The notes: a model not told the origin generated them from the letters alone. Shown: positions 1 to 32,463, counted from the whole stretch's first letter. The stretch is 63,546 nucleotides of DNA, filler included, from Octopus bimaculoides (GCF_001194135.2; 3 parts of 3 records of this genome joined end to end with filler, not necessarily neighbours in it), one strand, 5' to 3'. Made by a program: numbers and translations.

Positions 1-362
1 GGCAATATACTACACTTTATCGTGCAGTTACTGTTAATACTTCATTTAGAGAATTAACATTGCTTGTTTTCACCTTTTCAATATCAGTGAAGAATGTCAC
101 TGGAAAAGAAGATATAAGATTTTGCCAGGTTTTTCTCTCTCACCAAGGTCATCAGCTGTCGAACGCCGAAGAAGGGAAATAACCCTGAAATCCGGATACG
201 TTCGTGCTGCTGGTCGTGGTGAGAGGGATAACTCCCTTGGCAAACAGGACACAGTCGTGTGTCGATAAGCCAGCTGGAGGAGATGTCCTCCTGGGGCTAA
301 AAGCAACAGTAACATCCACCCCTAGGGGTCAGCCACACTTAAGTGGCAATATACTACACTTT
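1..362 (+). mobile_element. HHR-bearing repeat unit of about 344 bp (retrozyme-like or Penelope pLTR-like)
   Basis: GGCAATATACTACACTTT occurs at 1-18 and 345-362, bracketing the HHR, and is followed by (TA)n. The upstream context lies outside the window. Confidence 0.5.
160..204 (+). ncRNA. Minimal type I hammerhead ribozyme motif (Penelope/retrozyme type)
   Basis: CGAACG (stem I) - CCGAAGA (CUGANGA core with U4C) - AGGG aaataa CCCT (stem II) - GAAA - palindromic ATCCGGAT (stem III) - A (UH cleavage site) - CGTTCG (stem I, perfect 6 bp). Confidence 0.75.
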
Positions 363-454
363 ATATATATATATATATATGTATATGTATATATAAGTCG
401 AAATATTATTATTTCTAAATCTCTCAAAGAGAGATATTCAGTCATAGTACTTTG

Positions 455-643
455 AAGTAAAGACTGTTTACCAACATAATGTAGCAGACCTGGATGTGGG
501 TGTCGAGTTCCCGTGTTCGAAAATATAAGGACACAGATACTGTGTCGTATAACCAGCTGGAAATGACGTTTCCTGGATCTAAACAACAGTACCATTCGTC
601 CCATCTATGACTGCTACATTATGTTGGTATATAGTCCTTACTT
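455..643. mobile_element. MITE-like element with 33-bp terminal inverted repeats
   Basis: ACCAACATAATGTAGCAG (470-487) is the exact reverse complement of 611-628. The arms extend to 455-487 and 611-643 with 3 mismatches. Confidence 0.6.
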
Positions 644-1302
644 TATACATACATACATACATACATATATATATAAATAATATATAATTATATGCATATA
701 TCCANNNNNNNNNNNNNNNATATATATATATATATATATATACTAACATAAATAATATATAATTATATGCATATATCCATACATATATGTACATACCTAC
801 ATCTATATGTATACATACAAGCATATATGGGTACAGGACATCACAAAAAACGTTAAGCACAATGAAAAACGAAAACATAAAAACGAAGACAGAAAACGAA
901 CTTTTTTCGAATAACGAAAAAAAACAAACAAACAAACAGAGAAACGAGACATGCAACATAAAGAATATTTCCCTTCTTCAGTTGTCCCTGTTCCATCTAC
1001 TCCGCGTTCGAAGGCAAGGACGATACGCGACTTTGTTGGAACAGTCCTTCCCGCAAAGCAAATTAAATAGAATTTGGAATTTTTTGCGGAGGGTGAAAGT
1101 GTAAACAAGAACAGGACAGTGAGAACAAGACAGTAAAAAAAAAGTAAAAACAAGACAGAACAGTGAAAACAAAGGGTAATGGCTGCTAGGCTAAGACGAT
1201 AGAAAAATTATTATTTATACATTTACACACATACACACACACATATTCAGTAACATAGCTAGCTGACCGGCAAATTAGATAGACATACAAATAGACAGAC
1301 AG

Positions 1303-1389
1303 TCAGGCAAACAGACAGACAGACAGACAGACAGACAGACAGACAGACAGATAGATAGATAGATAGATAGATAGATAGATAGATAGATA
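1303..1389. repeat. (GACA)n/(GATA)n compound microsatellite
   Basis: Direct reading. Confidence 0.95.
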
Positions 1390-1896
1390 TAATATGTGAT
1401 TATGAAAGTCTAGGTTCTTTTATAACGAACAATGAAGCGCAGCAATAAATGTGTCTTCGAGCCGTGAGTCTGTCTTTCAAATAAGGATTTTCTGGACTAT
1501 TCCATAATGGTTGTGAATTGTAAAAGATTGTAATGGTAGCGTGTCTGTCACAAGTTTTGGAAAAGAACAATCGGAGGAATAGTTGATAGACCAGTCATTT
1601 GTGTGACAAGCCTAACATGATTCTCGACTGGCGTTTTTCATGCAAGCATTGACTTGTTCATGTTAAAACTGCACTGCCATCTTCCTGTTGGACCTAATCG
1701 CCTGGTCTGTTAAGATGTGGCACTGTCTTACCGGCTATTTAGGTGTAAACTGGTATTAGTACCCGGTCCTTGAGTACCTGTAGTGGAGATTATCCTGTTG
1801 TCAGAATGTGTTCTCTTTCTCTCTGTGTTGAGTTTTCGCTCATATTAACTACTATATTTGTGGCTTGGGAATATGGCCGCGTAATTTCTCTTTTTA

Positions 1897-29251: not shown

Positions 29252-29467
29252 GTAATAACACGAAAGAGTGAGACCAGCACTATAAAGTTGTTACTCCAAT
29301 ATATAAAATCTTATTTTCTGAGAGTCTTTAAATACAGTGAAGAAGAGTACAATGTGATAAGTATTGTCGTGCAACAACACAAAATGTCGACAGCAGTTCT
29401 CAGTTACGCATCGAATCGTAACCTTTAGCTTACTATAGTGAGCAATGTTTACTTTTGGGCTCATCTC

Positions 29468-29507
29468 CTGCTCGATCGGATTCGACTTGGGGCTAAACAA
29501 GAACATC
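29468..29507 (+). mobile_element. Family-C SINE 3' tail fragment
   Basis: CTGCTCGATC...GACTTGGGGCTAAACAAGAAC resembles tails at about 45.9, 48.5 and 53.5 kb. Confidence 0.45.
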
Positions 29508-29533
29508 CGCATCGAAAACGGCGATCAACCATT

Positions 29534-29605
29534 TACACGTTCCGTTACACGTTCCGTTACACGTTCCGTTACACGTTCCGTTACACGTTCCGTTACACGT
29601 TCCGT
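29534..29605. repeat. 12-bp minisatellite (TACACGTTCCGT) x6
   Basis: Six perfect copies read directly. Confidence 0.95.
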
Positions 29606-31297
29606 TATGCAATATTGATACGTGTCAATATTATTGTCAGAAATATCTCTGTATTTTCCCAATCGATCCTTGTTTTTTTTTTCTTTTAATATATACCTTA
29701 GATCTTTGTAAATTTATTTAATCGACATATATTTTCACTCTGCTATTATAAATTTAGATAACAACCCTATCTTATTAAATTACACATCATGTATCTTTAT
29801 ATTTGACATAACATCATCACATTTTCGTTCAGTGAGATACTAGTCTGTTTTCCAGATTCCTTTTTTTGTTTGTTTGTTTGTTTTTCACTTTCAGAAACCG
29901 CTTTTATTACCCCCAAATGCAACGGTACTACTTATATCAATATCATTTATCGAAATTGCATCTTATCAGATGCTTTGCATTACATCCATCAGAAACACAT
30001 TCCATATGCCATTTGGATGAACTGTAAAAGCATTTAGAATCTAACACTATCATCTAGTCATCTTCCCGTTAGTTTGAATGTTGAATTTGGATAACAGCCT
30101 AAAATATTAATGAATGTTGCTTCATGTTTTCCCCATGTTTCCGCTGTTTTCGTACATCATCTTGTTTCTCTCTATATTCCATGTAATTAAAATTATTTCA
30201 GCTGATGTCATTTTATTCTCATTAGGCTTCTGATTTCGAAAATGTTTGAAGAAACTCATATGTTGATGTTCCAAGTTCAGAATCCGCTCCAGTTTCTCTT
30301 CTTTCCGGCATTATTAGCGTGACGTGTCCTTCAGTTAAAACAAACATATAGAGCATAGATATACATAACTAAATGAAAACTAGTATGACGATTGAAACAC
30401 CTTAAGCAAATAAAAGCACACCTTGCATTTCACAGAAGGCATTTCGCTTTGGAAATAACCTAATATGATGAACTAATAAGTAAAATTGTTCCTGTAAAAC
30501 ATTAGTGAATTGTGGTGATATGGTAATTCGAAACTTAATATGTATTTAATAGTTTAGTTTACTTGTTGGTTTTTATGTATCTGCTTCTTGAATCGGGTTT
30601 TTCTCCAGTAAAAATACGACTTCGTTTGTAAAATTGAAATTAAATGTCTATAATAGAGAGGAAGTTACTTAATCCTTACTGAACGTAATATAATTCAAAA
30701 CTCACCCAATAATTTAAAACGGTTCATGTTCTCAATTAACTTTGTAATTTATTTCTAAATCTTTTATAGATCATTTTTAATAGAATCTAATATATTATTT
30801 TTATGGAGCTTCCTGTATCCTCTTCAACGACAAAGTAAAGGAATCGCAAAAATGTAGACCACCAATAATTAGGATATCTCATAATTTTCAATTTTCTTTA
30901 TCAAGAGAAATTATGATTAACGTAGAGTATATATATGCAGGTATACCTCAAATTACGTCATAATTAGTTCCAAGACATGCGAGTTGACTCAGAAAACGAC
31001 GTAACAAGGAAAAACATTAAAAAATGTTGTTAGCACACATTTGTTTCAATATATGCTCTCCATATATTTTTACAGATATTTCATTTGATTTTTGCACTTC
31101 AGTAATTTGTTTTTAAATTGTTATGTCTTTAAATATGTTCGCTGAGACTAAAGAAACTGGAATAAATCGGCTGAATTTGAGGTCTATTTTTCCATTAATT
31201 TGTTAAACAAATGGCATAAAACAGTTGTATATTTAAGAGAATTATGTACATTATTTACATTATTTACAATTGACGGATATTTGTCCTCATCTTGTTT

Positions 31298-32463
31298 CAC
31301 AAGGATAGTATTCCATTAAGACCTATAGTAAGCTGTAGAGGTTCAGCATGTCATCCACTGAGCCGCTTCCTTGTGGATATAATCAGTCCATTAGCAGGTA
31401 AGTCAACATTGTACGTGAAGAATTCTCCCCACTTCACAGAATTGATCAAGGATACCCTATTGAATCCAACCAGATGGTGTGTCTAGATGTGATAAATCTG
31501 TTCACCAAAGTCCGAACTGGTGAAGCACTATCGGTGATTCAAGAAAACCTAGTGACAGACACCCATCTAAAACAACGCACTAGTATACCAATAAGAAACT
31601 TGATGAAAATGTTGACATTCTGTGTAGAAACTACCTACTTCAGTATGGACACTCATATATATCGACAGGAAGAGGGTTTAGCTATGGGTTCACCATTATC
31701 GCCGATAATAGCCAATATATACATGGAATACTTTGAGAATTTGGCTTTAGGATCAACACCACTAAAACCAACCCTATGGCTGCGATATATTGATGACACC
31801 TTCATACTCTGGCCCCACCAGGAAGATGTCCAAGTGCTGTTAGATCATGTAAACTCAATAAATCCATCCAAACAGTTCACAATGGAAAAAAGGAAAAAGA
31901 TAATCAGCAAGCATTCCTGGACGTATTAATAACACGCACCAAGTATGGATTCAGGACAACCGTATACCGCAAGCTGACCTTCACTGGACAATACCTCAAC
32001 TTCAACTCCCACCATCCATATAGTGTAAAGAGAGGGATTGCTCAGTGCCTAAAACATCGAGCAATGGATATAAGTAGCGATCGTGATACCCACCACGAAG
32101 AAATGATCAAGCTCAGTAACAATCTATTGAGCAGCAACTACCCCAAAAGCATACTCTACACTCCAATTAGAAAGAAAGGAGAGGATTAAACCGATAAACT
32201 GTCCACAGTCTGTCTACACTATGTGAAAGGCCTCACCGAAAAGTTACAAAAGATATGCGGCCCATATGACATCAGGACAGTATTCAAAGGTAATACAACA
32301 CTTCGCAAATATCTACTTCGAGCAAAACCACCAATAGAAGAGAATATGACTAAGAACAGCGTGTACTCTATCCCATGCAGCTGTGGTAGGTTATACAAAA
32401 GCGAAACATGCCGCTCCCTCAAAATAAGGGTAGAGGAACATCGCGAAGCTGTGAAACGGAGAA
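31298..32463 (+). mobile_element. Penelope-like retroelement remnant: RT, C-terminal domain and GIY-YIG endonuclease, 5'-truncated
   Basis: HKDSIPLRPIVS; LDVINLFTKV; GLAMGSPLSPIIANIYME; WLRYIDDTF; FLDVLI...YLNFNSHHP; VYSIPCSCGRLYKSETCRSLKIRVEEH; several frameshifts. Confidence 0.95.

Follow-up and report, generated by a model that had tools for sequence, protein, structure and literature searches.

The DNA analysed here (referred to as the window) is a stretch of 63,546 nt from Octopus bimaculoides (GCF_001194135.2), in which three parts of three records of this genome are joined with filler. It is AT-rich (30% GC), microsatellite-rich DNA of animal type with an N count of 5,031, and we take its repeat landscape to be cephalopod-like. 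Seven strings with the topology of minimal hammerhead ribozymes are present together with a broken open reading frame (ORF) of a Penelope-like element (PLE). An original prediction, made from the sequence alone, had viewed the seven as ribozymes in unrelated non-coding repeats, several of which use the Penelope reverse transcriptase (RT). Masked self-BLAST grouped the motifs into five families, A (motif 160), B (2247), D (3453), E (6091) and C (10179, 21227 and 27912), while an unmasked repeat search was dominated by microsatellites and N runs. The flanks are thus not all unrelated to one another: three motifs share one family (C), and D has a tie to the fragment of the Penelope ORF. The features are listed in Table 1.

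Table 1. Hammerhead-bearing and Penelope-related features in the window (pLTR, pseudo-long terminal repeat)
Feature	Coordinates	Strand	Basis or remark
End of preceding family A unit (head-to-tail junction)	1-19	+	repeat identity
Family A unit, 344 nt, non-coding, retrozyme-like	20-363	+	repeat, reads, folding
Hammerhead of A: 6-bp stem I, U4C core, stem III of 2 bp with palindromic tetraloop	160-204	+	predicted cut 198/199
A'-type insertion without hammerhead: inverted 42-nt 3'-end arm (455-496) and 5'-truncated direct copy (~498-644)	455-644	+	self-comparison
Family B inverted arm	1896-2050	-	83% identity to 2296-2450
Family B partial unit, internally deleted	2055-2140	+	2058-2100 vs 2298-2341; 2098-2140 vs 2441-2483
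Family B unit, 343 nt, non-coding, decayed hammerhead 2247-2300	2141-2483	+	predicted cut 2293/2294
Family D: 5'-truncated pLTR/ORF-start piece, decayed hammerhead 3453-3498	3403-3546	+	protein and self-comparison
Family E: intact core, 3-bp stem II, ACGU stem III, 2-bp stem I	6091-6130	+	single copy in window
Family C copy 1 with minimal hammerhead at 10179-10211; microsatellites on both sides	10081-10295	-	descriptor and alignment
Family C copy 2 with minimal hammerhead at 21227-21265, the best preserved of the seven	21129-21345	-	descriptor and alignment
Family C copy 3 with minimal hammerhead at 27912-27948, carrying A6U	27900-28037	+	5' extent 27860 or ~27900
Inverted D-family 3' end adjoining the 5' break of the Penelope ORF	31220-31297	-	39/42 identical to 3505-3546
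Broken Penelope/Poseidon-type ORF: RT, thumb, start of putative C-terminal endonuclease	31298-32463	+	RVT_1; tblastn

Detection and anatomy of the hammerhead motifs

All seven predicted strings were found in place and on the expected strands. They were scored with a type I descriptor consisting of CUGANGA, a stem II of at least 3 bp, GAAA, a palindromic stem III, a base other than G at H17 and a stem I of at least 3 bp. With a perfect core, the descriptor matched two of the seven motifs (10179 and 21227), and none of 100 local dinucleotide shuffles gave any match. When one core mismatch was allowed, the motifs 160 and 27912 were added, so that four of the seven matched, versus a shuffle mean of 0.06 and a maximum of 1, a count above that of shuffled sequence. 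The remaining three fared less well: 2247 and 6091 matched only with a 2-bp stem I, a setting which was scored without shuffle controls and also yields one junk match (5925), and 3453 is decayed. At two mismatches there were six matches including two junk ones, and the shuffles gave up to five, so this level is noise. Other CTGATGA strings, at 155 on the minus strand and at 13784, 17818, 40709, 40807 and 61934, were rejected, since none of them matched the descriptor at one mismatch. The claim that the base at H17 is never G is true for 7/7 motifs, but it carries little weight, since at 16% G per strand seven non-G bases in succession have a chance of about 0.3, and a non-G H17 is also part of the descriptor.

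Minimal hammerheads were described in the pLTRs of metazoan PLEs by Cervera and De la Pena 2014 (PMC4209133), who report that a genome can have several families and that most motifs occur singly, derived from truncated PLEs. The motifs of the window resemble them in the type I core and, in C, D and E, in the palindromic 15.2-16.2, the extra base after A9 and the G10.1-C11.1 pair. The base after A9, this pair and the ACGU palindrome are all present in the three copies of C and in E, D being decayed. A and B have longer stem III palindromes, and B is without the extra base after A9. Further points of likeness are the several unrelated families per genome, mostly solitary and some close together on opposite strands; unlike the Schistosoma families with a stem II of 7-8 bp, stem II here has 3-5 bp. 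Compensatory changes among family members occur in stem I of C (by eye) and in the rod and stem III of A. In four of the seven motifs the core departs from the canonical one (the U4C of A being the family norm), and every copy is solitary. The original prediction was right in reading the motifs as type I hammerheads of minimal or nearly minimal form with a connection to PLEs.

The 344-nt unit of family A and the insertions of A' and B

The positions 1-20 are identical to 345-364 at 20 of 20 nt. The A unit has a GC content of 44.8%, and its minimum free energy corresponds to a z of -6.66, with none of 100 shuffles equally stable; in the fold of the 344-nt unit the hammerhead sits at the tip of a long rod. 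We aligned to 1-361 the reads of two raw RNA runs (X23 and X24, about 6% of each) and the contigs of two further runs, one of DNA and the other probably of RNA (X13). There were 1011 of 12.9 million reads in X23 and 928 of 12.0 million in X24, or about 78 reads per million, together with 8,941 DNA contigs and 32 X13 contigs, and 28 of 28 bins were covered. Thus A is transcribed and, with its 8,941 DNA contigs, abundant in the genome. Joints going back 344 or 345 nt (344->1, 348->4) were present in 97 reads of X23 and 95 reads of X24, with about 50 start sites each, and head-to-tail joints were also found in the X13 RNA contigs. These joints bear out the predicted tandem unit. Since the junction reads start at about 50 sites, the interpretation of the 20-nt repeat as a target-site duplication was rejected. 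The junction reads fit circles and tandem transcripts of A alike.

For calling a retrozyme active, Li et al. 2026 (bioRxiv 10.64898/2026.07.22.740005) use at least two consecutive hammerhead-bearing units. Two consecutive A hammerhead units were not found within the window, which begins 19 nt before the unit, and the reads are too short to reach from one hammerhead to the next. Among the loose ends of A listed there was no common exit into an ORF; they lead instead into variant subfamilies and AT-rich flanks. An exact-pattern scan for A in metagenome contigs gave 0 loci. As a separate observation, the RNA depth over A peaks across the unit junction (1-65 and 261-349) and drops after ~65. The drop suggests a second A 3' end about 40 nt further, possibly a tail; it is absent from the DNA contig depth.

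A divergent A contig, compared over 26 of its 29 differences, has nine changed pairs in the rod and the hammerhead stems, of which four are double-sided (stem III included), four compatible and one broken. It also carries the canonical U4. In the family as a whole U at core position 4 is a minority (26/240 reads in X23, 18/199 in X24 and ~4% of the DNA contig depth), and position 7 is C in 215/243 and 181/203 reads, so that the majority core of the family is CCGACGA. At H17, A or C was found among the variants listed.

The A' insertion is a relative of the 3' part of A and ends in a microsatellite. Despite their divergence, A (228-345) and A' (505-625) both keep two small hairpins and the A-rich stretch that follows; with two sequences only this joint fold is weak, and the shared elements are a candidate for the signal by which the mobilising RT recognises its RNA. 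An HDV-like ribozyme (after hepatitis delta virus) in A' was rejected, the loop not being common to A (by eye).

The B unit has a fold z of -1.76, and its 343-nt period is known within this locus alone. Its hammerhead has GCAA in place of GAAA and an interrupted stem I. Two further B pieces meet at an inversion point, and both begin close to the 3' side of the predicted cut: the inverted arm starts 2 nt 3' of it and is without the last 33 nt of the unit, so that the unit is 33 nt longer at its 3' end, and the partial unit starts 0-4 nt 3' of it and finishes at the unit end. Counted as one event, the coincidence with the cut has a probability of ~2-3% by our own arithmetic. A start at the cut was seen in one of three inversions; that of D begins 11 nt downstream, and that of A' is not placeable. 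The B junction at the predicted cut hints at cleaved RNA as the template.

PLE insertions typically have a 5'-truncated copy in inverted orientation at their 5' end and may carry an additional tail of 30-40 bp (PMC8557442). As far as their sequences go, the inverted 3'-end arms of A', B and D and the length differences of 33-36 nt in B and D match this insertion signature. A fold-back as a distinct architecture, which had been proposed for B, is in our reading nothing but this standard inverted copy.

The Penelope fragment and families D, C and E

The predicted Penelope retroelement is present, with an RVT_1 match at E 3.6e-11. It is a 1.17-kb fragment with two frameshifts, one stop and both ends missing, and in tblastn it is 64-81% identical to P0093, a full-length protein of 806 aa. 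Several homologs start aligning at 31298, which places the 5' break of the ORF there, and inspection by eye and the alignment with P0093 both point to the start of an endonuclease. The clade was assigned by domain order only, and a Protein Data Bank search with P0093 gave distant RTs only. A filtered tblastn with 65 PLE proteins at E 0.05 found nothing outside the fragment. The run X13, guessed to be RNA, contains 0.44 of the words of 29620-32600, and no RNA run was otherwise listed for this region.

The D copy at 3453 adjoins an (AAT)27 tract, and the inverted copy at 31297-31220 exceeds the 3453 copy by ~36 nt. When 120 related PLE proteins were compared with the six frames of D, four scored at least 45, all of them antisense and N-terminal to the RT. 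The same 120 proteins gave no such score against A, B, the three copies of C or E, and one of 40 control regions had one such match. One protein, P0122, reads the D-like segment antisense (scores 68 and 50, maximum of 500 controls 38) and then in the sense direction (56 and 48, control maximum 33; BLASTP E 4e-4), so that its order is antisense D, sense D and, after these, the N-terminal domain of PLEs. Read-through of inversions of this kind occurs at times in gene calling. The link between D and the ORF was obtained by unfiltered and short-alignment tests on the proteins of related contigs, and P0122 alone gives it: the first 45 residues of P0093 and P0123 scored within the controls against D. 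Exact-pattern scans of D gave 0 loci in metagenome and viral contigs.

On these comparisons, we assign D to the ordinary pLTR and ORF start of an autonomous Penelope lineage. Its position at the ORF start in P0122 implies an overlap of the D hammerhead with the start of the ORF, which is also found in the Poseidon element PAc of Anolis carolinensis (Frangieh et al. 2024, PMC11167929). Like PAc, the element has the RT followed by a putative C-terminal endonuclease, insertions that end inside the first part of the ORF, an optional tail and AT-rich targets; the PAc endonuclease prefers ATT. Unlike PAc, the window copy is a broken fragment whose clade rests on domain order. For D, then, the flank maps to an ordinary pLTR of an autonomous Penelope element, an outcome that lowers novelty, but this does not apply to every family. 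By the same token the original prediction of several non-autonomous families using the Penelope RT probably holds for A, but not for D.

A tRNA-headed element had also been proposed. ARAGORN found 0 transfer RNAs (tRNAs), within 3255-3550 none of the Rfam matches at E<=10 was to a tRNA, and a B-box-like string at 3435 falls within the D pLTR piece; the proposal is not supported. By eye, a tRNA-arm-like string at 3275-3322 is followed by (AAT)27. It is probably the end of a separate short interspersed nuclear element (SINE), with the D piece inserted in its tail.

The three copies of C have a common 3' end and sit among microsatellites. Their stem I differs in sequence yet pairs in each copy (6, 5 and 3 bp). 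Neither C nor E has a link to the D-lineage PLE proteins (120 proteins), and both most likely derive from other Penelope-like families, as pLTR ends that have lost their 5' part. C copy 2 may extend 5' to ~21605. Directly upstream of C copy 3 there is an imperfect AT-rich palindrome (27696-27891), which is absent from the other two copies. A short direct repeat lies on both sides of the motif E (6086-6136), and alternative hairpins would compete with the hammerhead fold.

Apart from these families the window contains a SINE-like family of at least a dozen copies, some of them tandem or inverted (15291-16964, 38531-39596, 43439-44603, 58905-59095 and 61129-61256), and a second repeat family at 6244-6393, 16029-16185, 17250-17385, 21768-21923, 23490-23631 and 49041-49188. 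On the minus strand, 7512-7825 is a degraded RT-like frame of the non-LTR type (LTR, long terminal repeat), L1/Tx1-like by eye. The region 28146-28400 is presumably the C-terminal remnant of a mariner-type transposase, judged by eye from its resemblance, and 29533-29607 is a perfect 12-nt tandem repeat of 6.2 copies with 100% identity.

Probable origin and proposed mobilisation of the hammerhead families

Based on these data we consider it probable that the window contains five worn hammerhead families, in which D is a Penelope end-repeat with the ORF start, A and likely B are of retrozyme type and likely copied by Penelope enzymes, and C and E are most likely pLTR ends. Non-LTR retrozymes are known from metazoans including a mollusc, with units of 350-390 bp in mussel and of 330 and 350 bp in axolotl (Cervera and de la Pena 2020, PMC7229834), and PMC7761336 provides further fit for A. 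We regarded as retrozyme features a non-coding unit of 150-450 nt, a GC content under about 45-50%, a type I hammerhead and self-pairing, all of which were found in A. In size, GC content, self-pairing, stem III and junction, A fits the published retrozymes. A and B share with them non-coding units of 343-345 nt, a GC content of 43-45%, a type I hammerhead with a stem III of 2-3 bp and a palindromic loop, a head-to-tail junction, self-pairing and coexistence with PLEs. They differ in having 1.05-1.3 units per locus, U4C in most A copies, a hammerhead that caps a long rod and insertions with Penelope-type inverted arms and a tail, and they are known here from sequence and reads, not as circles. 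We conclude that A is a gene-free head-to-tail unit probably dependent on a Penelope RT, and that B is likely a retrozyme-type element copied by Penelope enzymes.

In the mechanism that we propose, the RNA of the elements would be transcribed, mostly by read-through, and cut to unit length by the hammerhead, possibly followed by circularisation. Cleavage in the ACGU-type families C, D and E may be dimer- or protein-assisted, and A and B, with their stem III of 2-3 bp, could possibly cleave as monomers. A complex of Penelope RT and GIY-YIG endonuclease would nick AT-rich or microsatellite DNA, and reverse transcription would be primed at an internal site of the RNA, at a distance of 50-190 nt on the 3' side of the cut. 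It would then cross the unit junction by way of a circle or a template jump. The expected outcome would be copies truncated at the 5' end, incomplete tandems, arms of inverted 3' ends and, in some cases, tails of 30-40 nt.

Several results weigh against this interpretation, and many of them are also what would be expected if A and B were gutted or pLTR-derived Penelope mini-elements, amplified through linear read-through RNA (by template jumps) or at the DNA level, with the hammerhead as a passenger and no circles. In ~90% of the A reads position 4 is C, and U4C lowers the activity in vitro. In the two RNA runs there was no pile-up of A read starts or ends at 198/199; the Anolis study reports no reads at the cut either (PMC11167929). 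The A RNA reads are about equal on both strands, and 51-52% of them continue into unlike sequence. This is the pattern expected if copies lying within host transcripts are transcribed passively; free circles fit it less well, though such libraries may lose them. The A junction has no entry among the DNA contig joints listed, only a related 353->13, and the short repeat contigs make this uninformative. In the divergent A contig two more pairs, outside the rod, are broken, and three of six common paired variants of A among those listed break pairs. According to the literature, the hammerhead is not required for insertion in vitro in Anolis (PMC11167929), and eight of nine Xenopus retrozyme dimers were uncleaved (bioRxiv 10.64898/2026.07.22.740005). 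Set against the mini-element explanation are the covariation of stem III and rod in the divergent A copy, the variation of H17 between A and C only, among the variants listed, and the one B junction that begins at the predicted cut. We regard it as rather unlikely, though as the most probable of the alternatives. There are other unfavourable points as well. Rfam gave no hammerhead match at the gathering score in the window, none at E<=10 in three motif regions and the D region, and none among the 150 of 278 matches listed in a whole-window E-value scan dominated by microsatellite and microRNA matches. The motif 3453 fails the descriptor at every setting, none of the seven motifs folds alone into a full hammerhead, and only 160 is more stable than its shuffles. 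A protein search with one C reading frame found no ORF, which is a weak test. The Pfam GIY-YIG model matched neither the window fragment nor P0093, only the distant homolog P0061. Finally, B, C and E are known from the window copies alone.

The absence of a sequence link between A and the D-type Penelope also speaks against our interpretation, and it would suit mobilisation of A and B as SINE-like elements by a long interspersed nuclear element (e.g. RTE or CR1). B likewise shares no sequence with D, copies end in simple repeats, and the L1/Tx1-like RT remnant at ~7512-7825, recognised by eye, lies in the same window. The inverted 3'-end arms, the partial head-to-tail units and the 33-nt optional tail are, however, Penelope signatures (PMC8557442, PMC11167929), and we consider this explanation improbable. 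Equally improbable in our view is an undescribed ribozyme mobilome in which four or more separate families, tRNA-headed and fold-back types among them, would be non-autonomous. A is non-autonomous, B probably so, and for C and E it is possible; the tRNA-arm-like string before (AAT)n upstream of D could be added. But D is a PLE ORF start, neither ARAGORN nor Rfam detected a tRNA, the fold-back of B is the known PLE inversion, and the palindrome at 27696-27891 is not shared by the other C copies. There is next to no probability that AT-rich, repetitive DNA produced the motifs by chance. The missing Rfam match, the instability of most motifs on their own, the descriptor failure of 3453 and the 2-bp stem I of 6091 would be in line with chance, whereas the excess over shuffles, the covariation in C and A and the link of D to a PLE are not, and for A, C and D a chance origin is refuted.

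Returning to Penelope-copied elements of retrozyme type as the preferred explanation for A and B, the copies in the window are probably inert, since each is solitary and four of the seven cores are not canonical. Min-HHRs of PLEs, retrozymes and the link between the two are already published, and the families described here are additional members. The PLE origin of retrozymes was proposed by Li et al. 2026 (bioRxiv 10.64898/2026.07.22.740005) from co-occurrence and pLTR homology, the mechanism being left open. The literature on hammerhead or retrozyme with octopus or cephalopod gave no description of the families A-E, a weak absence given the incomplete coverage of papers and supplements, and the accessible part of the octopus repeat annotation (PMC13282606) lists Penelope families with no 'ribozyme'. 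On hammerhead and U4C, PMC3088659 was the only paper found. It cites a viroid in which U4C occurs naturally in the hammerhead, where it lowers the activity in vitro but still allows infection (Perreault et al. 2011). In the viroid U4C is a rare variant, whereas in A it is the majority state of an abundant genomic repeat.

In summary, the window is the hammerhead landscape expected of a Penelope-rich invertebrate genome. Its retrozyme-sized units with Penelope-type insertion scars bear on the question of which retrotransposon moves animal retrozymes, and the majority-U4C and minority canonical subfamilies of A are a natural comparison for selection on ribozyme activity. It is tempting to speculate, and we do so tentatively, that A is an abundant retrozyme amplified with a fixed U4C, and that the Penelope scars of the A-like and B insertions, together with the one B start at the cut, are the footprint of Penelope RT and endonuclease mobilising self-cleaved RNA. 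If true, a step proposed by the retrozyme papers would be evidenced in a genome, and with family A one could ask, in a natural setting, if rapid cleavage is important for the spread of such elements.

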